Both the position numbers and the translations under genes were made by a program. This document shows, in pieces, positions 39,926 through 63,996 of a stretch of 64,000 nucleotides of DNA; the first letter of the stretch is position 1; every line of letters begins with the position of its first letter. The stretch comes from Naegleria gruberi (lineage: Eukaryota): assembly GCA_000004985.1 (NCBI GenBank), contig GG738865.1; one strand, given 5' to 3'. The notes below the pieces were generated by a model that was not told the DNA's origin, made no database searches, and saw only the letters and a program-made list of their open reading frames with translations.

Positions 39926-39926
39926 A

Positions 39927-41505: not shown

Positions 41506-41682
41506 ATTTTATAAAATTTCAATGTATATATTTATAGTATTTAAAAATAATACAAGAATACAAGAATAACATATACCTAGTAGTAATGGTAATGGTAGTA
41601 AGAAATATAAAGCCTTTACCACAAAATGTGCGAGAAGCCAATGTTGGTTTGTGTTGGTTGGAGGGAAAATGATATTGTACTT

Positions 41683-41694
41683 TTTGGCGCCAAA
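41683..41694 (+). promoter_or_regulatory. 12-bp GC-core palindrome TTTGGCGCCAAA, 26 bp upstream of the IFT140 ATG. It matches the E2F-type consensus TTTSSCGC on both strands.
   Basis: Seen directly. This is the only GC-rich palindrome in the 214-bp spacer between the PIG-T stop and the IFT140 ATG. Any regulatory role is inference. Confidence 0.25.
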
Positions 41695-41719
41695 TTTAAA
41701 TTCAACCACTACAAAAAAA

Positions 41720-44700: not shown

Positions 44701-46221
44701 TTGAAATTTTATGTTCAAGCCAATGATTTCCTTTCTCAAGTTAGAATGTATTGTTTTATTGGTAATTTAAAGATGGCAGCAGATATTGTAAAGAAATCAC
44801 AAGAAAAATCAGCAGCTTATTATTTTGCTAAACAACTTGAAAATGAGAAGGATAATAAGAAACTATTAGAACATGCAATCAAATATTACAAATTTGCTGG
44901 ATGTTTTAATGAAGCAGTTAGAGTTTCAAAAGTATTAGGAAATGATAATGAAGCATTGAATTTAGCTTTACAATCTGCTAATGAAAAATTAATGATTGAA
45001 GTTGCACAATATTTTGAATCATCAGGTCAAACAGACAAATCAGTTTTATTATATCAAAAAGGTGGTAATTTATCAAGAGCAATTGATTTATGTTTTAAAT
45101 ATCAATTATTTGAAACATTATCAACAATTGCAGATAATATATTTAATGATAAATCTGAAAGTAAGGTAGATGATGATCCAGAAGTATTTATGAAATGTGG
45201 TCAATTCTTTATTGAACATCAACAATATGAAAGAGCTGTTCAAATGTATATAAGAGCTAAAGAATATGAATTGGCACTTGAATTATGTGTTACTAGAAAT
45301 GTTAAATTAACAGAAGAAATGGCAGATCAAATGTCTCCACCTTCAACAGATGAAAATTTAACTGAGGAAAAGATTGTTCTATTAAGAAAAATTGCCAAAG
45401 TTGCATCAATGCAAAATAATTATTCAGTTGCAACAAAGAAATATGTTCAAGCAGGTGATAAATCTAAAGCTATGAAAATACTTATCAAATCAGGTGATAC
45501 TGAAAAGATTATGTTATTTGCAGTTTTATCAAGACAAAAACAATTATATATTCAAGCTGCTAACTATTTACAAAGTTTAGATTGGCATAATGAACCTGAA
45601 ATTATCAAATCAATTATTTCATTCTATACAAAAGCTAAAGCATGGAAACATTTATCAGTTTTCTTTGAATTATGTTCACAAGTTGAAATTGATGAATATA
45701 GAGATTATGAAAAAGCATTGGATGCATTACGTGAATCTTCTAAATATTTATCTAAGGAAATTAAATTAAAAACAAGTGAAAGTAATGAATTAAGATTGAA
45801 ACAATTGAATCAAAAGATTTTATATATTGAAAAATTCATTTTAGGTAAATCCTTAATGAATTCAAAGAATAATGAAACACAATTTGTATCAATATGTAGA
45901 GAATTAATTAATGGTGTTAATAATTTAGATCCAAATGATGATCCTGTTATTGAAGTTGATGATGCTTTAAGAGTTGGAGATGTTTTTGCTATTTTAATTG
46001 AATATTATTTACAAACATTACAAGATACTTCAGAAGCTTACAAATTAATATTAGAAATGAAACAAAAAGAAATTACATTGAATTACTTTTTGGATGATGA
46101 AATGATTAAGAGTATTTGTAAATCTGTTGGTGTTGATTATAATGAAGTTATGCCACCTGAAGATAATCATTCAACTAGAACAGGTGATGATGATATTCAA
46201 GAAGAAATTGATGAAGATTAA
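41720..46221 (+). CDS. IFT140: Intraflagellar transport protein 140 (IFT-A complex subunit), join(41720..42163,42250..46221), about 1471 aa
   Basis: Exon 1 starts at aaaaaaaATG (41720) and ends at caa|gtaagt. The 86-bp AT-rich intron ends in aataatag|gat. Exon 2 is in frame and continues the WD repeat (..ITAHQ|DGNIGIWKFEGG..). The N-terminal WD40 repeats plus the C-terminal TPR-like solenoid show strong similarity to human IFT140. Matched segments include MAKMCVKTRKMEISEICLGNMKNALAARALRK (human [32 protein letters not shown]). Another is THKYEVPRM (human THRFEVPRM). The last is [51 protein letters not shown] (human [51 protein letters not shown]). The stop is at 46219..46221. Confidence 0.9.
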
Positions 46222-46258
46222 AAAATTAAAATTTTATTTATATTAAATTTTACTTGAT

Positions 46259-46828
46259 TTAAAGACCCTCTCCAAATACATAGGCTTTGGCAACATAGAC
46301 ACCACTTCCTCCATAATTTTCAGTCTATTAATGTATAAAGATTATTAATTTAAAAAAAACTAAACTTACAAATTCAAACTTTACAAATTGAGCATTTACA
46401 GATTGTGTATTTTCCTTATCAAAAATGTTTACTCTTTCAATAACATGATCTAATCCATTCAAATCATATAAAAAATCTCCAGAACGTTGTTCAATTTCAG
46501 CATCAACTAATTTTGTAAATTTAGTTCCATCTGTTGAAACATGAATTTGAATATGTTTAGGATTCTGATTGTTTTCTCCGTGAATATAAATTCCAACTCT
46601 TTTTACTTGTGACAATTTTTCTAATTTAATAATAAAATGTTGAGGTACTAGTAATTCCGATAATTAAATTCCAAAATTCTAAAAACACATACATGGTGCT
46701 AAATTATGTGAGAACCACACAAGACATGGATCTCTATTCATTAAATTCAAACAACGTGATTCGTGATGGTATTGACTGGAGAAGGAGTCAATACATCCTC
46801 CATTGTCAGGCATGGCAAGATTCTTCAT
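46259..46828 (-). CDS. Small (about 159 aa) galactose-binding-domain-like protein. Best guess is IFT25/HSPB11-like; alternatives are APC10/DOC-domain or NR2C2AP-like. complement(join(46259..46324,46370..46647,46693..46828)).
   Basis: The ATG at 46828..46826 follows an A-run. There are two 45-bp introns: gtatgt..ctag at 46648..46692 and gtaagt..aatag at 46325..46369. Frame continuity was checked across both junctions. The protein reads MKNLAMPDNGGCIDSFSSQYHHESRCLNLMNRDPCLVWFSHNLAPLPQHFIIKLEKLSQVKRVGIYIHG...AQFVKFEFTENYGGSGVYVAKAYVFGEGL. The pattern W-x-S ... PQxFII ... VxxLxIY and the 39-residue spacing before the single Trp resemble human IFT25 (FWTTTGMFPQEFIICFHKHVRIERLVIQS). The same fold signature also occurs in APC10, so the family call is tentative. 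It lies tail-to-tail with IFT140, with the two stop codons 37 bp apart. Confidence 0.4.
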
Positions 46829-47039
46829 TTTTTTAAAACACAATTTTAATTTTATTATTAGTTTCCTTGCATTGATGAATTTATAATTTCAAAGGTAATT
46901 CTATCCAGAGGAATTCTCTACAAGCTGAATGAAAATCATCCATCTTCAAGAGTAATTTAATTATGGAGAAATATTAAGATATTACAAATTTACAATTAAT
47001 AATAATTTTTTTAAGTGATTTATTTTCTGGGTAAACAAT

Positions 47040-47615
47040 TTATCTGTTAGCCTTGGAGACTCTTTCAACTTCATCCTTCTTCTTAATAGCATAAGAGTTT
47101 GGTGACATCTTAGCACAGTTGATGATTTCATCAGCCAAACATTCAGCCAAAGACTTGATGGTTCTGAAAGAAGCTTCACGAGAACCTTGAGTAATCAAGT
47201 AGATAGCAACGTTAACTCTTCTCAATGGGGAAACGTCGACAGCTTGTCTTCTGACAACACCAGCAGTACCAATTCTGGTGGAGTCTTCTCTTGGACCACC
47301 GTTTTGGACAGCATCAACCAAAATTTGGAGTGGGTTTTCCTTGGTCATGATGTGGATCAATTCGAAAGCGTGCTTGATAATTCTGACAGCCAACAACTTC
47401 TTACCGTTGTTTCTACCGTGCATCATCATTGAGTTGACGAGTCTTTCAACGATTGGGCAGTGTTGCTTTCTGAATCTCTTGACGTTGTATCTACCAGCAG
47501 AGTGTGGCAAATATTGAGCGTGTTCAGGAGAAGAAGCAATGTAATCCTTCAAGGAGAGATCCTTGACTTCAATGTTTTGGTATGACCACTTGCCGAACAA
47601 TTTGACGGAGGACAT
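47040..47615 (-). CDS. RPS5: 40S ribosomal protein S5 (uS7), 191 aa, apparently a single exon
   Basis: The translation is near-collinear with human RPS5. Shared motifs include KLFGKWS and YLPHSAGRY. Another is [29 protein letters not shown]. The C-terminal half carries [31 protein letters not shown] followed by [19 protein letters not shown]. The locus is visibly GC-richer than its surroundings. Codons are C/G-ending and yeast-like optimal (TTG, AAG, AGA, GGT, GCT, CCA, TCC, ACC), as expected for a highly expressed gene. Confidence 0.95.
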
Positions 47616-48245
47616 CTTTTGACGATTTTTTTTTCAACAAAGTTTTAAAATTTTAGTGGTTGAGTAATATTTTTACTTGTTACAACGAATTTTTTTCTCG
47701 CCACAACCAAACACCGATGAAAGAAACAAGCAAAAAGCCTTGCCACATAAACATTTACCAACTGGCGACTCTCGTGGTGAAAAACTAGTTGTTGTTTACT
47801 GAATGTACAATTGTGAGAAAATGGTTTACGACAAATATTCGGAGCAACATCTTTGATTATTAAAACAACAAGTAAGAGTGTATAAAGAGGCCTAACTTTA
47901 AAACTAGTCAGGCTACAGTTAAGAATAATTTCGGATCCGAGTATTATTGAATAATTACTAATAAGATAGATAGTTTGTTAGGAACATGCTCAAACATCAA
48001 CTTTTTATTGGAGTAATATCAAATAATTGATGATTGAATTTAATATTGTATGAACGACTTGTTAAATTAATTGATGAATATTAGATACTTTTCAAGTACT
48101 TGAGCCTTGTTATTATAATTTACAATGCAAGTCATCATTATTTGATTGGATCATCAAAGTTTTAAAAAATACAACAAGTAGCCATTGGTACCAATAACCA
48201 TTTCAAACTCACACCTTTCAAACTACCCCACTTATAACAATTATA

Positions 48246-48914
48246 ATGGGTCGTCATAAAAAAGAAAAACCAAACGGAATACCAAATTGTAAAGAATTTA
48301 CACCTGCAATGTCTGAAGTGAGCACAAATAATTTCATTTTCTATAATGGCCCAAATAATTCCAATAATAATAATACAAACCACTCTTCCAAAACTAAAAA
48401 ACAAACAAATTTAATTAATAATCATTCTAATAGTAGTAGTAGTAATAGTAGTGGTAGTAGTAATCAAGATCAAATTTATAATTATCAAGCCTATCATATC
48501 AATAATAATATTACTACTGGTAATGTAGGTGGTTCAAGATCAAACCAAACTAGTCATCAAGTTAGTGAAGTAGTTAATAACTCTCTCAATAATAGTAATA
48601 CCAACACTACTAATGGTGTATCAATGTATTTACAAAATCCATATCTATTATATAGTATTATGAATTTAGGAAATAATCAATTAAATTTATCTAATCAATT
48701 AAAAAGTGATCAACCAAATCATAATTATTCATATATGAATAACTTTGGATTAAATACAACAACAACAACTAATACTGCTAGTAGTAACATTACTATGAAT
48801 AATAATAATAGTCAAATAACTAATAATACATCAACTCATCAAAAAAGTGAGAGTAGCGTATTTCCTTTGAAACTTGATATTGAGGAATTACTAAATTCAA
48901 TATATTTTGAATAA
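48246..48914 (+). CDS. Hypothetical low-complexity Asn/Ser/Thr-rich protein (222 aa) with a basic N-terminus (MGRHKKEKPNG)
   Basis: The ORF is from the track, with the ATG in an A-rich context. It shows host-like codon usage and homopolymer-rich composition. I recognise no conserved domain. It is transcribed divergently from RPS5 across a 630-bp spacer. Confidence 0.5.
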   Translation: MGRHKKEKPNGIPNCKEFTPAMSEVSTNNFIFYNGPNNSNNNNTNHSSKTKKQTNLINNHSNSSSSNSSGSSNQDQIYNYQAYHINNNITTGNVGGSRSNQTSHQVSEVVNNSLNNSNTNTTNGVSMYLQNPYLLYSIMNLGNNQLNLSNQLKSDQPNHNYSYMNNFGLNTTTTTNTASSNITMNNNNSQITNNTSTHQKSESSVFPLKLDIEELLNSIYFE

Positions 48915-49264
48915 TAGTATTTCAAAATATTATGAATATTACAAATAAGTTGATTATTGGGACTTATCATTCATTAATGTTCAAAACTCTAAGAAGCAAG
49001 ATAAAAATCGTGAATAACACGATCAATTATCAGACGAGGTTCATCACAGTTAAATAATTACATGCAAGACCAAAAATCATGCATGTCAAATTATTCACTG
49101 ACGGTGATGAAATTGATCAATTAAATAATGATCCCAAGATGAAGCAATAAATTGTAATACATTGTAATAACAATTTTCTTTCTGTCAATTTCTAAAGTTC
49201 ATTATTGGATAAACGTAATGAAGTGGTGGAAATAGGATAACAGTTTCAATATTTTATTCGAGCA

Positions 49265-49337
49265 GCCCCGCTAGCTCAGTCGGTAGAGCGTTGGACTTTT
49301 AATCCAACGGTCGTGGGTTCGAGCCCCACGTGGGGCG
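49265..49337 (+). tRNA. tRNA-Lys (anticodon UUU), 73 nt, no intron
   Basis: Cloverleaf checked by hand. The acceptor stem GCCCCGC pairs with GTGGGGC (one G-U). The D-arm is TAGCTCAGTCGGTAGAGC. The anticodon arm TTGGA-CTTTTAA-TCCAA has TTT at positions 34-36. The T-arm is GTGGG-TTCGAGC-CCCAC with discriminator G. There is no encoded CCA, and a T-run follows. Confidence 0.92.
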
Positions 49338-49348
49338 TTTGTAATTTT
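49338..49348 (+). terminator. Probable Pol III terminator T-tract immediately 3' of tRNA-Lys (tttgtaatttt)
   Basis: Seen directly: TTT then TTTT within 11 nt after the discriminator base. It fits the usual oligo-T Pol III termination signal. Confidence 0.4.
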
Positions 49349-49870
49349 ATACCAGAAAGTTGCTTTTGTTATTGGTCTAAAGTTTATTACAAATAGTTGG
49401 ATATCGATTCCCGTCCTTCATATAAACCAATTCCAATTTGTCTTCACCTTCACTTGGAAGCAATTCCTAGATCGAGATGCATCCACTTTAACTGTAATAT
49501 TGGGTTCTTTCAATTTGTAATAAAAAAATCTTTTTTGTTGGAAAATACTTAGTTGGGAATTTTTGAATTGTTAACGAGGTTTCTTAAGAGTTTCGATTTA
49601 CAAATAAAAAGTATTGTTGTGAATCTTTGAAATAAATGATTTCGATCTCTATCATTGAACTTTCTCTCCCCAAGTTGTTTTCTTTTTTATCTGATAATGA
49701 TTATCATTTTACAACAACCCATTCAATTGAGGGAGGATTTAACTTGTTAAAACATATAATTTAGAAAGAGTTAATTTATTATCACACACATATATTATTA
49801 ATTAAAAATATATAATTTGAATATATCACGAAAAGAATAAAAATATATATTAAAATTAAAATAATAATAA

Positions 49871-50799
49871 TTATAAATCATATAAATTAATATGACCAAA
49901 TGTATCAGTTGTAATAAATTGATTAATTTCAGTTAAATAATTTCCATTTGTAACACATGGTTGTTGTTGATGATTATAGGCAGAATGAATTAATTCAAAA
50001 TTATTTGAATTAACTTGATAAACTGAAAATTTGTTCATTCCCAATGAAATTAATAATTTCTTTTGTGGTTCATAAATAAAATCACCAATCATATTCACTG
50101 CTTTATCTATAAATGATATTAATGTTTTACCTGTTCTAATATCATGTACTTGAATAGATCCATCTCCATATCCTTTTTTTTTTATAATATAATATTAAAT
50201 TAATATTATATTATAAAAATAAAAATTAAAATAAATTAAATAAATATTAATAATAAAATTAAATATTAAATAATTAAAAATTAAATAAAAAAAAACATAC
50301 CTAAACAAACAGTAAAATCATCTAAATAAACATGAGTAAATAAATCATATTTACTTGTATCATAAACAAAAGCAGGTTTACTTGTATTACCTGTTCTAAC
50401 ATCAAAAACATGTAAAACACCTTGATCAGTAGTAGCAGATGCAACATTTGAATCTGAAGGATGAAATCTAACACATGAAACAACATCTTGACATAAATAA
50501 ACTGAATTTTCAGATTTAACTTGATTAGTTTGTATATCATCTACTAATTTACTAATATCAGTGACAAATACTTTTTCATCAAATCCACCTGATATTACTA
50601 ATGATTGATTAACTGGATTTATAGCAAATTGTCTAATTGTATCATGATGAAATTTAGGAAATATATCAATTACATTAATATCATTCAATTCTTCATTTAA
50701 TATAACAATACCTAATTCTCCATTAGCTGCTATTATTATTCTTCTAGGATCTTTAGGTAACCATTCTAAATAACGTAAATGTTCTTCAATTGGTTGCAT
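49871..50799 (-). CDS. WD40-repeat protein, about 271 aa, complement(join(49871..50172,50301..50799)), family not identified
   Basis: Exon 1 begins MQPIEEHLRYLEWLPK... and ends ..FTVCLG at the donor g|gtatg. The 128-bp intron is about 100% A/T and ends in (a)n ag. Exon 2 reads GYGDGSIQVHDIRTGKTLISF...INLYDL in frame. Typical WD signatures are present: GG-x-D-x-V, HP-x-S, G-x-L-HVFDVRTG and DGSIQVHDIRTG. Without using the intron, the frame would terminate as ..CLGMFFFI. Confidence 0.7.
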
Positions 50800-50859
50800 T
50801 TTTAATATATTTAAATTTAAATTTATTTATATTTGAATTTATATTATTTGAATTTATAT

Positions 50860-51465
50860 TTAATTATTATTTGAATTAAATGAATTATTTTCAATTCTAG
50901 ATAAAATTAAAGCATTTTTAGATAAAGTATTTTGATTTTCTGTACCCATCAAACATAAATAACCATTTGATGAATTATTAAAATTTAAATAGGGTGATAT
51001 AGCTGGTTTAGATAATCCTTCTAAATAATAATTTGAAGATGACATTGATGTTGAATTATTAAATATGGTATTATAAAATGGATGATTTTTAATGTCCATT
51101 TGAAAGTTTGGATTCATAATTGGTAATTTAGGTGTATCATATCCAATACAACCATATTGTTGTTGTTGTTGTAAAAGTGAAGATGATGTTGATGGTGATA
51201 GTGATTGTGGTGGTGGTGGTGGAGGTGATATCATACCACCACTTGGAGTCATTAATGAAGGTGATCCCATTGTTGTTGTTGTTGGATGAATATTATTACC
51301 ATTAGTACCAACAATATGTGTTGATGGTGGTGGTGGACTAAAATGTTGTAAATGTTGTGATTGTGTAGTAGCCATATTAGGATCAATGATTAAATTACCA
51401 TAGGCATCTGTCATTGGTTGTGTATTCATTTTTTTTATTTTTTTTAATGTGTTTGGTGACGTCAA
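50860..51465 (-). CDS. Hypothetical Pro/Gln/Ser-rich low-complexity protein (201 aa from the first ATG; an alternative A-run-preceded ATG lies at 51429)
   Basis: ORF from the track. It contains PPPPS, PPPPPPQ and QQQQQ runs and ends ..NSFNSNNN*. It lies 60 bp upstream of, and in the same orientation as, the WD40 gene. The spacer has no G at all, so no AG acceptor can link them by splicing as the sequence stands. Confidence 0.45.
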   Translation of the reverse strand: MTSPNTLKKIKKMNTQPMTDAYGNLIIDPNMATTQSQHLQHFSPPPPSTHIVGTNGNNIHPTTTTMGSPSLMTPSGGMISPPPPPPQSLSPSTSSSLLQQQQQYGCIGYDTPKLPIMNPNFQMDIKNHPFYNTIFNNSTSMSSSNYYLEGLSKPAISPYLNFNNSSNGYLCLMGTENQNTLSKNALILSRIENNSFNSNNN

Positions 51466-53941
51466 ATGTCAACAATTGGATAACATATTGGAAGTTTGTT
51501 ACAATGATGAGCAACATTTTGAATGAACTGTTCATAATATATTACCCATAGAAATGGAACAACAGTTGATCTAGAACCACTTTATCAAAATACAGTTGTA
51601 TTCAAGGTATTAAGCTCAGGAACTGTTTAACACCTTTAAATGATTCAACCTCAAAAGACAAACTAAATTCATAAATTGGATTACAAACAATTAAGTAATA
51701 ACAATAAAATTCAAATATATTGATGACTTGGGATTTTATTTATACATGATGATAAATGATTATTAGCAGAGTAAGGTTATGGGGATTCAATTTACTCTCT
51801 TTGGTAAATAGTTTGATGTTTTTATGAAAAAGGTTTAAAAGCTCTGGCAGCATATGCTGTCAATTTTTGTAATGAAAGTCATATGTTGACGACACGGTTG
51901 TGTTAAACATGATTCTTGAACCTTTCCTTTGAGAATTGGAAAATCATGACTCACTAAATAGCTTGACAAATTAAATCAGGAATATTTGAAGAGAAATTGT
52001 GATGGTTGTTTCCTTGTTGTTTGTAGTAAACATAGTGTTGGAGAATGCTAATAGCAGAGTACCAGGTTGGTAAGGATTATTATTAAGGATGGAATCTCTC
52101 GAAAAAATCAAAACAGAGTCTGTATGATGGATATTTTGGGGTAAGAAACTTAAGAGTCTTTTTAAAATCCAATTAAGCTTATTAAGATTTTATTTGCAAG
52201 GATTGATTCAAAAGAATGTAACGCATCACTAATATATATTGGATATTTCTGGCATATAATTACTCTCAATTACTATATCATTCTTAAAAATCTCATTACA
52301 AATTATGAGAACTCAATTTTTCATTTTATCATTACAAAAATCCAAACCTCAAAACAGTTATTATGAGGACACAACAGATTTTCCAATAGAGTGAAGTTGG
52401 AGGTTTTCATTGCACAATCATTCCAAGCATTAAAAATTCCTCAAACATCAACTGTTGTTGAAAATATTCCAGGATACAAATCTTATTGCTGAACCAACTG
52501 TTTCTGAAGAATCTAGTGCTCAACCAAATTTACCAATGGTTTTCCAAACGAATGATCAACAAGTCACCAGGTAAAATAAATTGTAATACTGTCAAATGCA
52601 ATTTTATAATCGTTAAATGGTTTGCAGAATGTATATCCGGAACATACCGTAAGCATTTTTTAACTATAACATATAATCACATATACTTAAAAGAGCGGTC
52701 CAGAATTGCTGAAGAAAACTTTAAGTGTAGAAGAACATAGCCAAATCATTATAACTGTAAAAATATCGATTTGTAAATAATCGTTCAAAAATATACAGTA
52801 TATGAATAGAACAGCTCTTGGAGTGTTAGATAGGAACTTAGATAAGTCTCGGATTGTTAAAAGGGAGCATGTAAATCGTACTCAACGGCGTATATACGGA
52901 GTACATACACTAACAATCAAATTTTACCACATATATGGGTTAATGTTATCGTATGTATTATCCCCTGATCATATTTCCCATCATTCTAAACTAAAATCCG
53001 CTTGTTTATTGATGATTCCTTCCTATGAATAATGCTTACAATGTTTCGTTATGAATTGTTACGTTGAATAGAACCAATCAGATAGCAGTTAATGTAAGTA
53101 TTTGGTGAAGTATTGTTGGAACGTGCATGAGTGTTTTGAAAGTGTACACCTTTATTTTAGATGAAAAACAACAAAAATGTTAAATTTAAAAGCTAAAATA
53201 AGAATATGGTTTTATTTTCAAAATATAATCTTGTTTTTGTAAACTTTTCATTATTCTTTCCTCTTCTTTTCTTTCTGTTCTTGCTATTTTTCAATCAAGA
53301 AGTATCAATTCTTCATATACTGTTTAGTTTGTTTTAATTTCATAAGCAATCCTTCTATACAGTGAATTTCTCTTGCAACGAAAATTTTTCAAGATGAAGA
53401 GATATCAATTTTTTTTGAAAATTCTCTTCTTTCCAAATCTCTTCCATCCTAATGCAACATCATGTCAACATTATGCTCTGGCACTTTCTGTACACTATCA
53501 AGAGCACCAACAACATGAATGAGAAAAAGCAAAGACTACTTCAACAACTATTAGAAAATTTCAAATGTTGTTTCCAGCAGTCGTTAACAGAGTTAATTTT
53601 ATCGAAATGGATTTTCTGATTTTATCCCTTCATATTTGAAAATTCATTTGAAGAATAATCAAATACGGAGCTTTTTGTAAGAAAATTACATAACAGTATA
53701 TTTGAGTCATCATTCGATTGAAGAGCAATTAAACATTTTAAACATCCAATTTACTCGTCTAAATCTTGGGAATTATTGTGAAATATTTGATGGAGATTTG
53801 AAGATGGTAGAGTATCTTTGAATTTGTGAATTATTCTTTATTTTACTAATAATGGTGGTGGTGGTGTATTATTATATCATTTTATATCATTGTGAATATA
53901 TTTCCATCTTCAACCATTTTGAATATTAATTAAAACAATCA

Positions 53942-54016
53942 ATTTAATAATAATTTAAAACAATATTTAAATTGTTGAATATTCAATAAAATTATTGTTT
54001 TAAATTATTATTAAAT
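53942..54016. repeat. Long near-perfect inverted repeat (hairpin). The 24-nt arms at 53942..53965 and 53993..54016 flank a 27-nt loop that itself contains the palindrome ttgaatattcaa.
   Basis: Verified by hand. The left arm ...tttaataataatttaaaacaata is the reverse complement of the right arm tattgttttaaattattattaaa. The central segment is partially self-complementary. Confidence 0.75.
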
Positions 54017-54060
54017 AACAAGTAGATTGATCCTTTAAGTTATTATTAAATAACAAGTAG
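54006..54060 (+). repeat. Direct repeat of a roughly 21-bp unit ttattattaaataacaagtag, two copies separated by 16 bp. A third, looser copy is near 54345 (ttaattaacaagtag).
   Basis: Seen directly. The first copy overlaps the right arm of the hairpin. Confidence 0.6.
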
Positions 54061-55564
54061 TGATGAGAACATGTTCTAAAATCAACAACAATATAATTCC
54101 AATTTATTAAACATAATTCATCCATGACTTTCAATTATTAAAATATTATTTTTCTATTAAATATTTATAGAATGATTCGAGTACAAATTAATAATTTTCC
54201 TCTAAACGTTAAATTCTTTGGTGGTGTGTATTTTAAATTATTTCATCAACACACACATTTTTTATTGCAATATCTTTCAAGTGTTGAGAATATTATTTCT
54301 TGTTTGTCGGTTAGTGGTGAATAAACACTCCAATGTTCAATTCTTGTTAATTAACAAGTAGTACGCATTGCATGACCTCACTCAGTCAACAACAATTTAA
54401 TGTCATCTCCTACCAATTATGAAAGAATATTGTGAAATATCAACTAGTTAACATACATAGTAAGTAGTGTGTGAATATTTAATTGTCATCAATCGATTGT
54501 TTAACCAACAAGTAATTTCAATACTTATTCAGAACATTATCATGATTACATTATTTCTTCAACTCAAGTGCAGCAGAACAACAACAGTCACATTTTACAA
54601 TAAATGTATCTACAGTAAAATACGAATCGTTACATTAATTGAAGGGATGACCATCAGGTTGAATACAACAACAATAATACTGTAGTAGAGAGAGTGAAAA
54701 GTTATTTAATTTCACACATTAACATTTAAGAAGAATACGAACCTGAAATGACATTTAAATTTGAACAACTTTCCACAATAAAAGTCAATATGATTTTCAT
54801 CTTGTTGAATCACCATCATCATCATGACAATGCACGAATCGTATTCTACACAACACATTCGCAAATGATGAATTTTGTCTTCATCAACTTGTCTCTCACA
54901 ATCTATCTGAACCATTCAAGAGGTTTCATATTTATACAAATGTCAACAATACGCCCAAATCGAATCTTTTTGCCATTTCCAAATAAAATCCATTGAACAG
55001 ATAAATACAATACTAACAATACATGGATTAAATGAAAATCATTTATTCTCTCTATCATGAATTCTTCATCATTCTTTACATTTGTAATTTATAGAGATAA
55101 TACAATTCAACAAATTATTGAGATTGTTTTTTTATAAGCCAATAATCAACACCATTAAATAAGGTTTCTTATTAAAGGAGTAAAAGAATATAGAAACTAT
55201 TATTCGATAGTAGTTAATAGAAACAACGACACTCATCCAAATGTCAACCATGGTGGAAGTAAGTGTGTACCTTAAAATTTGGAGCACTTGATAATTGGTC
55301 CTTTCTGTTATTTTAATGACCCGACATTTGATATTAAAAAATGCGATGTTTTTATTTTGGCAACTGCTTATCAAAATTCAAACGTTTCGAAAAAGAGCGC
55401 TTTTAATATTCGGTTGATGATACTCTGCCAACACAGCATGATTGGATAATAAAATTTAATATTCAAAAGAAAAAAACCAACCTAAACTAAAATTGTTGTT
55501 GATACTCAATCAGCATCATTTCTAAGATTGTTATCCATTCAAAACAAACTCTCCACAACACAAC

Positions 55565-57028
55565 ATGATGAATAATAATACTACTGCTGCTACTACAAGT
55601 GGTAGTAATGACATGTTCAGTTTTATTGAACCACCAACATTGGTGATTGGTAAAAAACCATCCACCAGTAATTCCAATTCAACACTGACACCAACTGGTT
55701 TATTGTTATCTTCACCACATTTATTCTTGATGGAAAATGATTTTCAATCACTTATTCAATCTACTTCAACTCCTACAAGTATTAATAATAATAATTTAAT
55801 GAATCATTTGAATAATAACATGATTCATACCAATAATAATGCTAATGCTACTACTATTTCATCGTCAGCATCTGATTTGGTGAATCATCACTTGTTCTTA
55901 TTACAAACACCAACTTCACCAACAACAATAACACCTATTATTAATACTTCAACTACTTCAACTTCAACTGCATTAACACCTACAAGTGCAAATAATTTAT
56001 TGATGAATAATTTTCTTTCATCATCAGGTGGTTTACTTTCACCTGATTTTGATCAAAATCCAATGCTTTCTAATAATCAATCAAGTACTAATACACCTAC
56101 CTCTTCAATGGGTAATCCTATTTGGTTACAACAACAATTATGTGATATCATTGATGATGTATTTCCAGAAGCTGATCAATTATTAGCTAATAATAATCAT
56201 GTTGTAATGGAACAACAACAACATAATAATAATAATGTTATTAATCAATGTAATGTTGCTGCTACAACAACATCTATTCTATCAGTATTATTAAATAATA
56301 ATACAAATACAAATAATAATAATAATAATAATACTATTATTTGTCATCCTAATCAACAACAAAATGTGTCACCAGTCAATAATTTATCACCAAATAATCA
56401 TGGTAAAACATCACCTTCTATTATTAATCATCAAACAATAACACCTATTATTATTAATAATACTCCACAATGTAATAATACTATGCAACAACAACAACAA
56501 GTATTTTCAAATAATAATATAAATACAAGTACTACTATTAAACAAGTTGGAGGAGGAAGTAAAAAGAAAAAGTCAACAACTAAATCCATTTCACCTACTA
56601 CTAGTACCATAACAAGTACAACTAATATGAGTACTAAATCATTCTTTAATACAAATATTGATCCATCTGCATTCTATTATGGTACTTCTGGTTTTTTGAA
56701 ATTCCACGACTATTCAGGTAGATTAAATACAAAGAAGAAGAATCATACATTTGCTGCTTCATGTGAAAAGATTCAAAAACAAAACAAAATGTTAAATCAT
56801 CATCATCACCAACCAATTATTAATAATATGAGTAATAGATCATCATCTATGATTTCTTCTAATAACAATAATAATAATATGATGATGATGACATCAGTAG
56901 CAGGTAATAATACTCATACTAATACTAATACTACAGGTACATCATTTCAAGAACAACAACAACATAATATTTATGATGAAATGAAATTTAAATCTGCTTG
57001 TCCAAATCAAGTATTTTACAAAATGTAA
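55565..57028 (+). CDS. Hypothetical Asn/Thr/Ser-rich low-complexity protein (487 aa) with poly-N, poly-Q and His runs
   Basis: ORF from the track, with the ATG in the context acaacATGATG. It shows host-like codon usage and I recognise no conserved domain. It lies head-to-tail upstream of RPC2 with a 228-bp spacer. Confidence 0.5.
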   Translation: MMNNNTTAATTSGSNDMFSFIEPPTLVIGKKPSTSNSNSTLTPTGLLLSSPHLFLMENDFQSLIQSTSTPTSINNNNLMNHLNNNMIHTNNNANATTISSSASDLVNHHLFLLQTPTSPTTITPIINTSTTSTSTALTPTSANNLLMNNFLSSSGGLLSPDFDQNPMLSNNQSSTNTPTSSMGNPIWLQQQLCDIIDDVFPEADQLLANNNHVVMEQQQHNNNNVINQCNVAATTTSILSVLLNNNTNTNNNNNNNTIICHPNQQQNVSPVNNLSPNNHGKTSPSIINHQTITPIIINNTPQCNNTMQQQQQVFSNNNINTSTTIKQVGGGSKKKKSTTKSISPTTSTITSTTNMSTKSFFNTNIDPSAFYYGTSGFLKFHDYSGRLNTKKKNHTFAASCEKIQKQNKMLNHHHHQPIINNMSNRSSSMISSNNNNNNMMMMTSVAGNNTHTNTNTTGTSFQEQQQHNIYDEMKFKSACPNQVFYKM

Positions 57029-57256: not shown

Positions 57257-60200
57257 ATGTTCTTGAATCCCTCTAACAAGAACAAGAATAATACAACCAA
57301 TAATTCTTCTTCCTCCTCTAATAATAATAATTTAAAAAATTCTCTCGGAGGAGGAGTAGGTGATGATGATGAAGGAGGAGGTGTGGATAATCTTCATGAT
57401 TTATTATATGGTAATCCTAATAAAATAACGGAGCCTATTAAAACAGTTGAAGAAAAATGGCGTTTATTACCAGCCTTTATGAAAGTTAAAGGATTATTTA
57501 GACAACATATAGATTCATTTAATTATTTTATTAATGTTGATATTAAAAAGATAGTACAAGCTAATAGTATGATTACACCTGATACGGATGATAAATTTTA
57601 TATTAAATATAATGATATTTATATTGCCAAGCCTAGATTAGATGAAGGAACTGATACAATAGAATTAACACCACAATTATGTAGATTGAGAGATTTAACA
57701 TATTCAGCAGATATAATTGTTAGTGTTGAATATCCACAAATAGTTGGAAATGAAACATTGATAAAACATGAAGATTTAAGTATAGGTAGAATGCCAATCA
57801 TGTTACAATGTGATAGATGTGTATTATGTGGTAAAGATGATAAAGAATTAGCAAAATTAGGAGAATGTCCATTAGATCCAGGTGGTTATTTTATTGTAAA
57901 GGGAGTTGAAAAAGTTTGTTTAATTCAAGAACAGTTATCTAAAAATAGAGTAATTATAGATTTAGATAAAGAAAAACAAATAACAGCATCAGTAACAGGT
58001 TCAACACATTATAGAAAATCTAAAACTAATATTATAATCAAACATGAAAGATTTTATTTAGATCATAATAGTTTTACAAAAGATATACCAATTATAATGT
58101 TATTTAAAGCTATGGGTATTGAATCAGATCAAGAAATTGTTCAATTAATTGGAAGTGATAGAAAATATATTGATGCATTAGGTCCTTCTTTTGAAGAATG
58201 TATTCGTGAAGGTGTTTATACATCTGAACAAGCTATTGAATACATGTCTAGATATTTAAAATTAGCTGATTTTAGAAAAAACAAACCTAAAATGGAAGAA
58301 ACTAGAGAAATTTTATCAAATATTATATTATGTCATATTCCTGTTTATAAATTTAATTACAAGATGAAAATTGTTTATTTAGCAATCATGGTAAAAAGAA
58401 TGATTGATGCTTTACATGATTCTGCAAATATAGATGATAAAGATTATTATGGTAATAAGAGATTAGAAATGGCAGGTCAATTACTTTCTTTATTATTTGA
58501 AGATTTATTTAAAAAATTTAATGATGAAATTAAAAAAACATTAGAAAAGAAAACAGGTAGAAGAAGTAGAAGAGCCACTTCAACACCCACTGAAGATATT
58601 TCATCTATTTTTAATGCAAATAGTTCTAAAATTACAGAAGGTTTAAAAAATTCAATCTCCTCTGGTAATTGGAATGTACAAAGATTTAAAATGGAACGTG
58701 CAGGTGTAACACATGTTTTAAGTAGATTATCATTTATTGCTGCATTGGGTATGATGACTAGAATTTCATCACAATTTGAAAAGACAAGAAAAGTATCAGG
58801 TCCACGTGCATTACAACCTTCACAATGGGGATTATTATGTCCATCTGATACACCTGAAGGTGAAGGATGTGGTCTAGTTAAAAATCTTGCACTTCTCACA
58901 CACGTTACAACAGATGATGAAGAAGAACCAATTATTAGATTAGCTTATAATATTGGTGTTGAAGATATTAATTTAATTTCAGGTGAAGAATTGAATCATC
59001 CATCTTCATATGTTGTATTTTTGAATGGTTTAATTTTAGGTATACATAGATTTCCATCACAATTTACAAAATTATTTAGAATGATGAGAAGAGCAGGTAA
59101 AATACATGAATTTGTATCAATTTTTAAAAATGATTTACATAAGGCTATTTATATTGCAAGTGATGGTGGACGTGTTTGTAGACCATTAATAATTGTTGAA
59201 AATCAAAAGTTAAAAGTAACACAAAAACATTTAAGTGAATTAGCTGAAGGTATTAGAACATGGGATGATTTTTTAAAAGAAGGTTTGATTGAATATTTAG
59301 ATGTTAATGAAGAAAATAATTCAAATATTGTTTTCAGAGAGGAAGATATCAAATTAGAAACTACTCATTTTGAAATTGAACCATTTACTATATTAGGTGT
59401 ATGTGCAGGTTTAGTTCCTTATCCACATCATAATCAATCACCACGTAATACTTATCAATGTGCTATGGGTAAACAAGCAATGGGTGCTATTGCTTATAAT
59501 CAATTTAATCGTTTAGATACTTTATTATTATTAATGGTTTATCCACAAAAACCAATGGTTAAAACTAAAACTATAGAATTAATTCAATTTGAAAAATTAT
59601 CAGGTGGTCAAAATGCATCCATTGCAGTTATGAGTTATTCTGGTTATGATATTGAAGATGCTGTTGTTGTTAATAAGGCTAGTATTGATCGTGGATATGG
59701 ACGTTGTATTTATTTAAAGAAATACGTCACTGAATTGAAGAGATATCATAATGGTGTTGAAGATGTTTTACAACCACCACCAAATGCACAACAAGCAAAA
59801 GATATGGATCAAAAGAGATTAAAATCATATCAACGTTTAGATTTTGATGGTATGTGTGCTGTAGGTGAGAGAATTTATCCAAATGATATGTACATTAATA
59901 GATTTGTTGCACAAAATACTCAAGATAATTTACTTGGTATGAATACACCTACTCCATCATCATCAAATGGAGGTGCTGGTGCTTCTAGTGCTAGCTGCTG
60001 CTAATACCTACAAACCATCACCAATATTTTACAAAGGACCATGTAGTGTCTATGTAGATCAAGTATTAATTACACCAAATTATGATAGAGGTGGATATGC
60101 ATTAAAATATTTATTAAGACAAACAAGAAGACCTGAATTGGGTGATAAATTTTCATCACGTCACGGTCAAAAAGGAGTATGTGGATTAATTGTAGATCAA

Positions 60201-60863
60201 CAAGATATGCCATTTAATGAACAAGGTATATGTCCAGATATGATTATGAATCCTCATGGTTTTCCATCACGTATGACAGTTGGTAAAATGATTGAATTAA
60301 TATGTGGTAAATCAGGAGTATTAAATGGTAAACAAGGATATGGTACAGCATTTGGAGGAGATAAAGTAGAAGATATTGGAAAGGGATTAATTAGACATGG
60401 ATTTTCATATAGTGGTAAAGATTTATTAACGAGTGGTATAACAGGTGAAACCATGTCATGTTATATTTATTTTGGACCTGTTTTTTATCAACGTTTAAAA
60501 CATATGGTTTTAGATAAAATGCATGCTAGATCTAAGGGACCTGTTAGAATTTTAACAAGACAACCACTTGAAGGTCGTTCAAAAGAAGGTGGTTTAAGAT
60601 TAGGTGAAATGGAACGTGATTGTTTAATTGGATATGGTGCAAGTGCATTATTATTAGAAAGATTAATGTTATCTTCAGATGAATATAAGGTACATGTTTG
60701 TGAAGATTGTGGAATGATTGGATATATGGGTTATTGTAATTTTTGTAAATCAAAACAAAATATTTCACTTTTACCAATGCCATATGCTTTTAAATTATTA
60801 ATTCAAGAATTACAAGCAATGAATATTTCACCAAAACTTAAATTATCACCTTTTGAAAAGTAA
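57257..60863 (+). CDS. POLR3B: DNA-directed RNA polymerase III second-largest subunit (RPC2/POLR3B/Ret1 homolog). It has an apparent frame break within 59941..60004.
   Basis: The N-terminal segment matches human RPC2. It carries [37 protein letters not shown] and, further on, [41 protein letters not shown]. The C-terminal part is in a different frame. It starts with [47 protein letters not shown] and [41 protein letters not shown]. It ends with the zinc-ribbon segment CEDCG..CNFCKS. The two frames overlap only within a Ser/Gly/Ala-coding, unusually GC-rich insert (..ggaggtgctggtgcttctagtgctagctgctgct..). No intron is possible there. Confidence 0.9.
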
Positions 60864-61512: not shown

Positions 61513-63996
61513 TTAAATATCTTCTAAAATAATACCACCTGTTGAATCTCTCAATTCCTTTTCAATGACGACATTTTGTACTCTTCTAACAATATTCTTA
61601 TTTTGATGTGATGTATGGGAGTGATGTGAATGATGTGTTGGACCAACTACATGATGATGATGAATTCTATGTTCATTTCCTAATATAACACTTCTATCTG
61701 CACTTGATAATATATTTGATTTTACAACAATTTTAGTATCATACCAGAAATATCTAAATACAACATAAATGGTAATATACACTGCAATATTAATTAAAAT
61801 TAAAAATGTAAGTAATGCAAATAAAAACCAAAATGTTGAAATGAAATAAGAACCATCTTGACATACTAAATTCTTAATATTACCATATTTAGTATTTAAA
61901 GTTTTACAAGTGACTAGAGATGCAACTTGCATTAAACTAGTATATAAATTATTCATTAAAGAATAAATAGTATCTTGTATAGATTTAACAAGAGCAGGTC
62001 TAATTTTAACATTTGTACCTAATGAAGAAATTAAACTAGAAACTAAATTAGGAGAATCATCAACAATAAATTTAATAGAAGATAATAAATCTGAAATTTG
62101 ATCATTTTTACAATCAAGTAAATAAGTTTGTGATAAACCATGTAAATCAGTATTAAATGAAATATTATATTTATAAAAAGAAGCTTCAAATTTTAAAGTA
62201 GCATTAATACCATATGAATCAACACTTTCAATTATATAATTTTCTAAATTATTACATGTATCACTTAATAAAATATTAATAGGTAACATGAAACATAAAA
62301 CAATACATCCTAATAATCCTAATAACATTAAACATATAATTTCAATATATAATAAAGATGGACATTTATAACAACATGATGGTAATATTGCTATTAATGG
62401 TAATAATACTATAAAACTTATAAATATAATTACTCCTAATAATCTATATCCATCCCATTTTAATATATCAATCATATATATATTATTTAATTGATAATTT
62501 ACTTCATCTTTCCACCATATATAGGTTTGTACTTTAACATTACCCAATGTAGTTATAATATTTGTAAATATACTTCCTAAATTTAAATATGAACTAAATG
62601 TTACAATATCAAATTGAGTTATAATTGCTGATATATCCATATTAGATGCTACTTGTAATATTGGTTGACATGATTCTATTTGTCTTGTAAATTCATTAAA
62701 TGGTAAAGTTGAAAATGATGAATTACCATTTTTAATACCATCACTTACTTGTTGTAATGGTAAATTTAATCCTACTTGTTTAATACCATTACCATATAAA
62801 GTTAATAATGTCAAGGCTTGATTAAAATTAAAATTATTATTAATAGTTTTTAATGGTGTTATTTGATTTTTTAATATAGTTTTTGAAATTAATTCTTTAT
62901 AATTATTCAATTCAGTTTTAATATATTGTAATGATGTTAAATTATTTAATGCAATTCTTAAATTTACTACTTTTGGATATAATTCTAATGATTTAGTATT
63001 TAAAACATTACATTGTGATGATACATCATTATAACATGTTGTTTTACCTTGATTATATGCTGCATTTACTAAATATTTATAATTTTCTAATTTTAAATCA
63101 TCAAAATCATTCAATGTTGTATTTAATTCTTGAAATGTATTACTTGCATTTAATAAATTCATATAATTATTAATATTATTATAATAATTTAAATAAGTTA
63201 TATTCATATTAGTTAAATTAATTAAAGAATATTGATTTTTAAATTCTATAATAGGTAATACTTGTTTTAAATTATTTAAATTTATATTTGATAAATCTAA
63301 TGTATTATTAAATAAAATAGAAATGGATGAAATAACTTGTTGATTAATATTTGAAATACTATTAATAGAATTATAATATTTTGTAATATCACCATTTACA
63401 AAAGTATTTAAAAGAGATTTAGATGAAGAATAATAATCAAATAAATTAACATTTGGTAATTCAACAAAAGTATCATTAATATATTTAATATCTTTAATTA
63501 AATTATCAATACAATTAGTTTGTTGTAAAATTGAATTAAAAAATAAAACTTGTGAATAAATATCTTGAATAAATTGTAAAGATGGAATTGAATTAATGGC
63601 AAATGTTAAACTTCTCAAATCATCTTTTAATAATTTATACTTGTTTGGTAATGTTTGATTAACATCTTGATTAAATAAATTTAAATTATTAAATGTTAAA
63701 TTTAAATTTGAAATTTGATTAAAAGATAATTGTAATTCATTTAATTTTAATTTTAATTCAAATTCTGATGGTAATTGTGATAAAGTATTATTCATATAAA
63801 TTAAATTATTAATTAATGTTATAATTGGTAATTTAAATAAATTTATATTATTTTGTAATATAATAGTTTCATAATATAAATTTGATAATTGTACAATATT
63901 ACTTGTTTTAAAATGTGATAATTCATATTCAAATTGATTAAAATATTTAAAATTTAATGTTGTATTCGTTTGATCTTGTAATGTTTGTATTGTATT
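61513..63996 (-). CDS. Large multipass membrane protein with an N-glycosylation-site-rich ectodomain; the 5' end is unresolved. The first in-frame ATG is at 63795, but the frame stays open to 63996 near the window edge.
   Basis: A single open frame on the minus strand, 760 aa from the ATG. About 440 residues carry a very high density of N-x-S/T sequons and Leu/Asn heptad-like repeats. Then comes a first TM (LLGVIIFISFIVLLPLIAIL), a cytosolic-side Cys cluster (PSCCYKCPS) and a second TM. A loop of about 160 aa with paired Cys follows, then a long hydrophobic segment that could be 1-2 TMs, and a His-rich tail (HRIHHHHVVGPTHHSHHSHTSH). The upstream extension has no Met and the same composition as the body. 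So the real start probably lies in an upstream exon or beyond the window. Confidence 0.55.
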   Translation of the reverse strand, partial: NTIQTLQDQTNTTLNFKYFNQFEYELSHFKTSNIVQLSNLYYETIILQNNINLFKLPIITLINNLIYMNNTLSQLPSEFELKLKLNELQLSFNQISNLNLTFNNLNLFNQDVNQTLPNKYKLLKDDLRSLTFAINSIPSLQFIQDIYSQVLFFNSILQQTNCIDNLIKDIKYINDTFVELPNVNLFDYYSSSKSLLNTFVNGDITKYYNSINSISNINQQVISSISILFNNTLDLSNINLNNLKQVLPIIEFKNQYSLINLTNMNITYLNYYNNINNYMNLLNASNTFQELNTTLNDFDDLKLENYKYLVNAAYNQGKTTCYNDVSSQCNVLNTKSLELYPKVVNLRIALNNLTSLQYIKTELNNYKELISKTILKNQITPLKTINNNFNFNQALTLLTLYGNGIKQVGLNLPLQQVSDGIKNGNSSFSTLPFNEFTRQIESCQPILQVASNMDISAIITQFDIVTFSSYLNLGSIFTNIITTLGNVKVQTYIWWKDEVNYQLNNIYMIDILKWDGYRLLGVIIFISFIVLLPLIAILPSCCYKCPSLLYIEIICLMLLGLLGCIVLCFMLPINILLSDTCNNLENYIIESVDSYGINATLKFEASFYKYNISFNTDLHGLSQTYLLDCKNDQISDLLSSIKFIVDDSPNLVSSLISSLGTNVKIRPALVKSIQDTIYSLMNNLYTSLMQVASLVTCKTLNTKYGNIKNLVCQDGSYFISTFWFLFALLTFLILINIAVYITIYVVFRYFWYDTKIVVKSNILSSADRSVILGNEHRIHHHHVVGPTHHSHHSHTSHQNKNIVRRVQNVVIEKELRDSTGGIILEDI

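Follow-up and report, generated by a model that had tools for sequence, protein, structure and literature searches.

The 4,135-bp stretch at positions 51430..55564 of a window from Naegleria gruberi NEG-M is probably a divergent-promoter spacer of excessive length, which remained at the junction of a rearrangement in the nuclear genome. The window, by which is meant the whole 64,000-nucleotide piece of DNA that was analyzed, opens with 39,925 N and continues with 24 kb of real DNA. Within the latter, the stretch, to which no strand is assigned, is a spacer without ORFs that separates two genes transcribed divergently, and it is bounded by their ATGs: that of a minus-strand WD40 gene at 51429 and that of a plus-strand ORF at 55565. 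In base and dinucleotide make-up it does not differ from the other spacers of the locus. The two flanking genes are neighbors in N. gruberi alone when compared with N. fowleri, N. lovaniensis and Willaertia magna, so that the stretch marks a gene-order (synteny) breakpoint, as inferred from three outgroup loci only. By its position between gene ends and its spacer-type base and dinucleotide composition, the stretch belongs with ordinary spacers; "ordinary" here describes the kind of stretch, not its size.

Flanking genes and spacer length

The initial annotation placed an ORF-free stretch at 51466-55564. The absence of a credible ORF stands, while the left edge does not, as position 51466 is the end of a mechanically called ORF that starts with TTG, and the real ATG of the WD40 gene occupies 51427-51429. 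This left-hand gene (49871..51429, minus strand, transcribed away from the spacer) encodes a WD40-repeat protein, with matches to Pfam WD40 families, a low-complexity N-terminal exon, and an exon chain recovered by a splice-aware gene search. Its product shares ~86% amino-acid identity with its orthologues in N. fowleri and N. lovaniensis. On the right, a gene for a low-complexity protein of 487 aa (55565..57028, plus strand) is likewise transcribed away from the spacer and sits just upstream of RPC2, an RNA polymerase III subunit gene. It carries a positive codon signal, and tblastx relates it to N. fowleri at E = 5e-11 and to Willaertia at 7e-6; its position and C-terminal motif are conserved in N. 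fowleri and W. magna. The gene is fast-evolving. Hidden N-terminal exons within the spacer were considered for it and rejected, since the N. gruberi and N. fowleri N-termini are collinear from the first residues.

Two proteins encoded in the window match N. gruberi proteins exactly, which disposed of a Dictyostelium origin that the A/T-rich, Asn/Gln-rich sequence had at first suggested. The 487-aa protein was absent from the protein collection when looked for there, and a HMMER search with it returned a spurious repeat match alone. The public protein set of N. gruberi apparently lacks this gene, which makes the annotated gap even larger, ~6 kb. The one tRNA gene reported by ARAGORN, a tRNA-Lys at 49265, lies outside the stretch, and none was detected inside it.

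What sets the stretch apart is its length, as the initial annotation had recognized. For the other spacers of the window the lengths are ~180-650 bp, rising to 947 bp where the tRNA gene is located, so the stretch is at least 4 times as long as any of them and 6.5 times longer than the window's other divergent spacer (47616-48245, 630 bp). In the N. fowleri and N. lovaniensis loci examined, 31 gaps are annotated, and the largest of them spans 1,129 bp, which the stretch exceeds 3.6-fold. With 57.8% of its 40.9 Mb coding and 16,620 genes (PMC9928731), N. gruberi holds ~1 kb of noncoding DNA per gene, about a fourth of the length of the stretch. At such an average a multi-kilobase tail is expected, and a 4-kb spacer would fall in this tail without being extraordinary. 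For the same genome, published EM-seq methylation data, used together with H3K9me3/H3K27me3 tracks, define 447 regions that are hypermethylated and heterochromatic (PMC12344493).

Composition and internal layout

Gene spacers elsewhere in the window had been described as nearly pure A/T, and the stretch as GC-richer and more complex than they are. Neither description survives direct comparison. The GC content of the window's other spacers is 0.22-0.295, a range that includes the 0.284 of the stretch, and trinucleotide entropy is 5.52 in the stretch versus 5.50 in the 630-bp divergent spacer, whose GC is 0.295. The sole A/T-pure class in the window is its introns, with a GC of 0.008-0.03. The apparent compositional anomaly arose because these introns, and not true intergenic spacers, had served as the reference for the stretch. 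Two further measures place the stretch with spacers and apart from genes: the CpG observed/expected ratio is 0.59, versus 0.61 for pooled spacers and 0.21 for coding sequence, and the trinucleotide Markov score is +0.008, where spacers score about +0.016 and coding sequence about -0.024.

Internally, the stretch divides into two blocks of complex DNA around an A/T-rich core. The left block (51430..53915), ~2.5 kb of noncoding DNA beside the 5′ end of the WD40 gene, is delimited by this core and is devoid of homology, repeats and coding potential. The core itself (53916..54177) has a GC of about 0.17 and is the only A/T-pure segment of the stretch. The right block (54178..55564), ~1.4 kb long, lies directly upstream of the low-complexity gene. 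Its length is near that of the orthologues' upstream spacers, 1.13 kb in N. fowleri and 1.33 kb in W. magna; sequence similarity between the block and these two spacers is absent.

The hairpin and direct-repeat structures mentioned in the initial annotation are both present. An imperfect A/T-rich palindrome of 75 nt (53942..54016) lies inside the core, with 33-nt arms (53942-53974 and 53984-54016) that are 91% complementary and enclose a 9-nt loop. Folded as DNA, it reaches -25.7 kcal/mol (z = -5.05), and none of 200 shuffles folds equally well. The direct repeat, TTAA(A/G)TTATTATTAAATAACAAGTAG, is 26 nt long and occurs three times on the plus strand within 54000..54361, starting at 54000, 54035 and 54336, with copies 96% and 85% identical to the reference copy. 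Beyond these elements, repetition is at background level: in 24-nt windows, 10 other internal repeats were counted versus 5-15 in shuffled controls, and no tandem arrays were found in the stretch. A degenerate tandem array with a period of ~301 bp, suggested by three repeat pairs spaced 301-304 bp apart, was rejected because six consecutive 301-bp units align at 41% column identity, the random level; the ungapped repeat count, at shuffle level, also speaks against it.

Several short motifs were examined in the stretch; we know of no promoter motif for Naegleria with which it could be compared. A perfect, CRE-like TGACGTCA palindrome at 51457..51464, 28 bp upstream of the WD40 ATG, may be a promoter element. 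It is present in a single copy in the window, and at least one copy appears in 7 of 100 shuffles. A second motif, CAAATGTCAAC(A/C)AT, has three plus-strand copies (51463..51476, 54937-54950 and 55238-55251) and was absent from the related loci in which it was looked for. The stretch also contains ATGTCAAC four times on the plus strand, where 0.16 is expected, and not once on the minus strand; the significance of this strand excess after multiple testing is doubtful. A conserved promoter motif AAATGTCAAC was dismissed, being absent from all eight related loci. Sigma-70 promoters and terminators occur at shuffle level in a scan that is not applicable to a eukaryote.

Alternative readings of the stretch

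Could the stretch conceal a protein-coding gene made of small exons? Short blocks flanked by AG and GTAAG do exist, for instance at 52070-52141 and 52572-52628, and it was such exon-like blocks, around 52070..52140, that had led to the suggestion of a cryptic multi-exon gene. No coding chain assembles from them. The best chains found by the splice-aware search score 9.3 bits on the plus strand and 7.9 bits on the minus strand, the level of shuffled sequence (7.8 ± 2.1 bits, maximum 12.9). The same program assigns the window's real genes 145-233 bits: it found the WD40 gene with a score of 233 bits and, with 145 bits, the 5′ portion of IFT140 including the true intron. Codon usage agrees with the earlier observation that no ORF has a coding-like composition: log-odds are negative in all six frames over the entire stretch, as opposed to +0.3 to +0.8 in the flanking genes, and the longest stop-free run, 92 codons, is matched by first-order Markov (dinucleotide-frequency) shuffles at 89.6 ± 16.4. 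Finally, no stop-free segment of at least 25 aa has a match at E ≤ 10 among 5.8 billion known and predicted proteins, the N. gruberi proteome included. A cryptic gene is thus highly improbable, and this reading is already close to refuted.

An eroded gene or transposable element, decayed beyond recognition, is unlikely. Gene loss or movement took place at the synteny breakpoint in which the stretch lies, runs of 60 or more codons without a stop are in mild excess (12 vs. 6.0 expected, P = 0.014), and a patch at 52367-52571 retains a codon signal that is weak, at 20 bits (P about 0.01), all of which would suit such a remnant. Against it, a Pfam search of the six-frame translations returned no family at E ≤ 1, transposon domains included, and the protein search was empty as stated above; between them, these searches detected no remnants of reverse transcriptase, integrase or transposase. 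LTRs or terminal inverted repeats were not found, nor was a long direct or inverted pair spanning the stretch, nor a second copy of it within the window's 24 kb. Of the neighbors that the orthologues have in N. fowleri, N. lovaniensis and Willaertia (a cation-efflux transporter, peptidase S10, a 340-aa gene and CorA), tblastx detected no trace: a search for them in the stretch produced seven matches, all at E ≥ 0.077, and a shuffled query produced two, so a pseudogene of any of them was rejected. Moreover, the CpG ratio is spacer-like rather than coding-like, such that a coding origin, if there ever was one, must date far back. The initial suggestion of a decayed mobile element, which would call for terminal repeats, transposon domains or protein relatives, accordingly goes unsupported. 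Even less of a case can be made for an assembly artifact or for foreign DNA, be it a contaminant, a vector or a viral insert. The 39,925 N at the start of the window do place the locus close to the end of a scaffold or to a large gap, but the composition and dinucleotide signature match those of local spacers, and both junctions continue directly into bona fide Naegleria genes. Blastn against 72,556 plasmid and 50,697 phage records gave no match, and a contaminant or vector origin was discarded; this reading as a whole is very improbable.

The remaining alternative is that the stretch holds one or more genes for a Naegleria-specific long noncoding RNA (lncRNA), possibly spliced and transcribed from the plus strand. 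Like long intergenic noncoding RNA genes, it is multi-kilobase, ORF-free and non-repetitive, with strand-biased donor-like motifs. GTAAG, the donor consensus of the window's real introns (for example GTAAGT at 42165), is enriched on the plus strand only, where it occurs eight times (51771, 52070, 52141, 52649, 53094, 53677, 54460 and 55259; 2.5 expected, P = 0.004) as opposed to once on the minus strand, a bias that would fit a spliced plus-strand transcript. The four ATGTCAAC motifs share this strand, and GC is held at 0.28 across 4 kb, free of A/T-pure tracts beyond the core. Against this reading, GTAAG, one of 1,024 pentamers, was counted after the initial annotation had drawn attention to it, and the GC level matches that of every other spacer here, thereby giving no evidence of constraint; the composition of the stretch is that of untranscribed spacers. 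Mean folding z-scores are near zero (-0.24 and -0.39), indicating no general excess of structure. Rfam 15 covariance models scored at best 18-27 bits, below gathering thresholds of 45-67 (E ≥ 0.15). Comparison with N. fowleri, N. lovaniensis and Willaertia likewise detected no similarity, at distances at which many functional noncoding sequences would not align either. The protein collections derive in part from transcriptome assemblies, and nothing in them comes from the stretch, which is weak negative evidence on transcription. A literature search for an lncRNA characterized in a heterolobosean found none, and we likewise know of none in Heterolobosea. Weighed as an explanation of the stretch, this reading is unlikely; taken as a claim about the sequence itself, that it encodes one or more lineage-specific, possibly spliced plus-strand lncRNAs, it is more doubtful still.

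Synteny and a proposed origin

An oversized divergent-promoter spacer at a rearrangement junction is, in our judgment, the reading best suited to these observations. Among the four candidates of the initial annotation (a long noncoding RNA, a decayed mobile element, an extended regulatory region and a cryptic multi-exon gene), it is closest to the extended regulatory region, which fits best even though its premise, a distinct composition, was mistaken. Like divergent promoter spacers in compact protist genomes, the stretch lies between diverging genes, lacks coding potential and shares the composition of its peers, differing from them in its length. Counting against this reading are that length, the mild excess of medium-length stop-free runs, and the plus-strand bias of GTAAG and ATGTCAAC.

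Gene order supplies the second half of the argument. The WD40 gene of N. fowleri and N. lovaniensis has uS7 as its upstream neighbor, ~165-200 bp away, and the low-complexity gene and RPC2 lie ~30 kb from it. The divergent neighbor of the low-complexity gene also differs in these two species, at a distance of 1.13 kb, and in W. magna it is CorA, at 1.33 kb. Furthermore, Gpi16, uS7 and the WD40 gene lie, each on its own, in the opposite orientation to that seen in N. fowleri and N. lovaniensis. The stretch thereby resembles evolutionary breakpoint regions, the gene-poor junctions of inversions and translocations, in that its flanking genes are adjacent in N. gruberi only. It departs from them in that neither relics of former neighbors nor any repeat capable of mediating the rearrangement was detected in it. 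Comparison with the orthologous loci of N. fowleri, N. lovaniensis and W. magna revealed no similarity, at a distance where neutral and many functional noncoding sequences alike are unalignable, and scans of metagenomes for close relatives, anchored on the WD40 and low-complexity genes, found none.

From these elements a mechanism can be sketched. The spacer may consist of two promoter and 5′-UTR regions that were joined by a rearrangement. On the right, 1.4 kb of it agrees in length with the region natively found upstream of the low-complexity gene in related species and might represent that region, and the remaining ~2 kb would be junction DNA that is barely constrained, if at all. The junction itself may be marked by the palindromic, A/T-rich core. 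Palindromic A/T-rich repeats are prone to cruciform formation and associated with breakage. The 75-nt element shares with the human examples (PATRRs) an A/T-rich, imperfectly palindromic sequence and a significant predicted hairpin, and is much shorter than they are, the human repeats extending over hundreds of base pairs. A role for the palindrome in the rearrangement is speculation by analogy. The function of the spacer, if any, would be to house promoters and regulatory sites for both flanking genes.

The main value of this result is that a false lead has been removed, and as it stands it matters little. The apparent absence of the 487-aa gene from the annotation is an issue worth fixing. 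Should a discrete transcript from the stretch prove real, it would be a candidate lncRNA in a lineage that, to our knowledge, has no characterized one. Beyond this, the locus documents a breakpoint together with several single-gene inversions that distinguish N. gruberi from the N. fowleri/N. lovaniensis lineage.

Coding content of the stretch and its surroundings

The stretch, a 4,135-bp spacer at 51430-55564, has no strand of its own and lies between two divergent genes, a minus-strand WD40-repeat gene to its left and a plus-strand 487-aa low-complexity ORF (55565-57028) to its right. An ORF-free stretch had initially been placed at 51466-55564; the absence of an ORF is real and the right edge stands, but the left limit is 51430, because the WD40 start codon occupies 51427-51429 and position 51466 is merely the end of a mechanical TTG-ORF. 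The longest six-frame stop-free run spans 92 codons, versus a maximum of 89.6 ± 16.4 in first-order Markov (dinucleotide-frequency) shuffles, and those of 60 codons or more are slightly enriched (12 vs. 6.0 expected, P = 0.014). Codon-usage log-odds trained on the verified genes of the window are negative in all 300-nt windows of the stretch (-0.04 to -0.68 in the best of six frames) and lie at +0.3 to +0.8 in each gene.

A cryptic gene of micro-exons had been proposed here. A splice-aware dynamic programme, which links stop-free, ATG-started exons across GT..AG introns 40-400 nt long and scores each chain as codon log-odds minus a per-intron penalty, finds best chains of 9.3 bits (+) and 7.9 bits (-); 60 shuffles average 7.8 ± 2.1 and peak at 12.9. 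As controls, the same programme regains all three exons of the WD40 gene (233 bits) and the 5′ part of IFT140 (145 bits), the latter with the true GTAAGT..AG intron. The top single coding-like patch, 52434-52571, reaches 20 bits, whereas an equally long segment of a real gene scores 683. The stop-masked six-frame translations match no Pfam family at E ≤ 1, and all 96 stop-free segments of at least 25 aa, concatenated, have no protein match at E ≤ 10 among 5.8 billion; this collection returned at least three N. gruberi proteins, so the N. gruberi protein set appears to be included. Since the chains score at shuffle level and the Pfam and protein searches are empty, the micro-exon gene is rejected, and a cryptic coding gene of any kind is highly improbable. 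The stretch is non-coding.

An N run fills 1-39925, and real sequence (39926-64000) begins ~25 bp ahead of the Gpi16 ORF; the locus thus borders either a large gap in the assembly or the end of a scaffold. Pfam and homology place Gpi16 (from 39951, +), IFT140 (41720-46221, +), an F5/8-type-C gene (about 46418-46834, -), the uS7/S5 ribosomal protein gene uS7 (47043-47615, -), a 222-aa orphan (48246-48911, +), tRNA-Lys(UUU) (49265-49337, +) and the WD40 gene (exons 49871-50172, 50301-50783 and 50946-51429, -) to the left; beyond the low-complexity ORF lie the RNA polymerase III subunit RPC2 (57257/57479-60863, +) and a 760-aa ORF (61513-63795, -). The uS7 and orphan products are identical to N. 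gruberi NEG-M XP_002677843 and XP_002677754, respectively, both from one 820,293-bp scaffold. The RPC2 frame is broken at 59980-59994: its two overlapping ORFs, 57257-60004 and 59967-60863, are not in frame with each other. In the annotation, the protein has 1,120 aa, is read from 57479 rather than from the first ATG at 57257, and skips from 59980 to 59994. The break is either a 13-nt "intron" patching an assembly frameshift or a sequencing error. In the WD40 gene, a low-complexity N-terminal ORF (51429 down to 50863) is in frame with the WD40 part (ATG at 50799), the stops between them falling within an A/T-pure, G-free 60-nt segment. Exon chaining links both ORFs via a minus-strand intron, 50784-50945; locus 49871-51429 is either one gene or two closely spaced ones. 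The sole copy in the window of a perfect CRE/ATF-like palindrome, TGACGTCA, lies at 51457-51464, 28 bp upstream of the WD40 ATG.

Composition and length

The composition of the stretch is of the spacer type. The initial annotation had described it as GC-richer and more complex than the other intergenic regions, themselves taken to be nearly pure A/T. Neither description holds: its GC content is 0.284, that of the other spacers 0.22-0.295, and the near-pure A/T segments are introns (GC 0.008-0.03). The anomaly is largely due to introns having served as the yardstick for spacers. In the WD40 gene, the intronic segments 50174-50298 and 50800-50859 are almost pure A/T (GC 0.008-0.03), while spacers have GC 0.22-0.30, a contrast opposite to the one first assumed and a handy rule for reading this locus. 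The divergent spacer 47616-48245 (630 bp) has GC 0.295 and a trinucleotide entropy of 5.50; the entropy of the stretch is 5.52. The most discriminating frame-independent statistic found, the CpG observed/expected ratio, is 0.21 in coding sequence (13 kb), 0.61 in pooled spacers (3.2 kb) and 0.59 in the stretch. Such strong depletion in coding sequence, and far less in spacers, is a contrast in an unusual direction, and the ratio could act as a frame-independent coding indicator in the N. gruberi genome. By a trinucleotide Markov classifier, too, the stretch falls closer to the spacers, with weak separation. GC, entropy, CpG and trinucleotide score all being spacer-like, length alone is unusual. 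That part of the earlier description survives: the next longest spacers of the window measure 630-650 bp, or 947 bp including a tRNA. Among 31 annotated gaps in the N. fowleri and N. lovaniensis loci examined, the widest has 1,129 bp, and the largest at the Willaertia magna locus is 2,376 bp.

Repeats, motifs and competing readings

An A/T-rich core at 53916-54177, the sole A/T-pure part of the stretch, divides a left block of ~2.5 kb from a right block of ~1.4 kb (54178-55564), and all small repeat elements lie in or near it. The hairpin and direct-repeat structures originally noticed are borne out, as an imperfect palindrome (53942-54016; 33-nt arms 91% complementary; DNA fold z = -5.05) and a 26-nt direct repeat in three copies. 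The stretch contains no LTR-like pairs, terminal inverted pairs or tandem array, and its 10 repeated 24-nt windows compare with 5-15 in shuffles. A candidate 301-bp periodicity was discarded, its alignment giving only 41% column identity. The spacer-like CpG ratio argues against recently decayed coding sequence. An ancient gene or transposon relic is unlikely. Plasmid and phage searches gave no matches to the stretch, and an artefact or foreign DNA is scarcely credible.

An unannotated lncRNA is likewise doubtful, if marginally less so than a relic. On the plus strand, GTAAG occurs 8 times (2.5 expected, P = 0.004) and ATGTCAAC 4 times (0.16 expected), with 1 and 0 occurrences on the minus strand; the 14-mer CAAATGTCAACAAT has exact copies at 51463 and 54937 plus a near one at 55238, and none of the related loci carries the motif. 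These motifs, the sole hint of a plus-strand transcript, were spotted after inspection of the sequence and among many possible words, and are therefore not compelling. The stretch holds no tRNA and no Rfam family at threshold (best 18-27 bits vs. thresholds of 45-67). Mean folding z-scores in 120-nt windows are -0.24 (+) and -0.39 (-), and the palindrome region alone stands out.

Gene order and origin of the spacer

Gene order in N. fowleri and N. lovaniensis runs Gpi16, UCH, IFT140, F5/8C, uS7, WD40, cation-efflux gene and peptidase S10, with WD40 165-200 bp downstream of uS7. Relative to these species, Gpi16, uS7 and WD40 are each singly inverted in the window, and region 39926-51429 is a hotspot of small rearrangements. 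The UCH gene is absent from the window, and the 222-aa orphan and tRNA-Lys(UUU) are inserted between uS7 and WD40. The low-complexity gene adjoins RPC2 in N. fowleri (about 30 kb off, same contig) and in W. magna; its upstream spacer measures 1.13 kb in the former and 1.33 kb in the latter, with a different divergent neighbour in both. Judged by gene order, the WD40/low-complexity-gene adjacency is specific to N. gruberi among the loci compared, which places the stretch at a gene-order breakpoint. The stretch itself lacks similarity to the related loci (seven tblastx matches, all E ≥ 0.077, against two for a shuffled query; no dc-megablast match), a result that says little on non-coding constraint since N. 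fowleri, N. lovaniensis and Willaertia are too distant; metagenomes yielded no closer relatives.

The 487-aa ORF has a positive codon signal and is apparently a real gene. Orthology is indicated by the C-terminal motif FFNT..P..FYYGT.GFLKFHDYS (tblastx E = 5e-11 in N. fowleri, 7e-6 in Willaertia), a collinear N-terminus and the retained position upstream of RPC2; the orthologues have 654 aa in N. fowleri and 532 aa in W. magna. An exact look-up and a homology search of the protein collection were empty and another search gave a spurious match only, so the public annotation of N. gruberi probably lacks this gene.

The best-supported reading, and a probable one, is that the stretch is an oversized divergent-promoter spacer, made when a rearrangement brought together the upstream regions of the WD40 and low-complexity genes. 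The 1.4-kb right block, which matches in size only, may be the low-complexity gene's native upstream region; the A/T-rich palindromic core could mark the junction, and the remainder would be weakly constrained DNA. Published resources for N. gruberi include a methylome and histone-mark data (PMC12344493). The stretch is a long intergenic region, compositionally ordinary. The published genome (40.9 Mb, 16,620 genes, 57.8% coding, 5.1% repeats; PMC9928731) implies that each gene has on average ~1 kb of non-coding DNA, and multi-kilobase spacers are thus expected in the tail.
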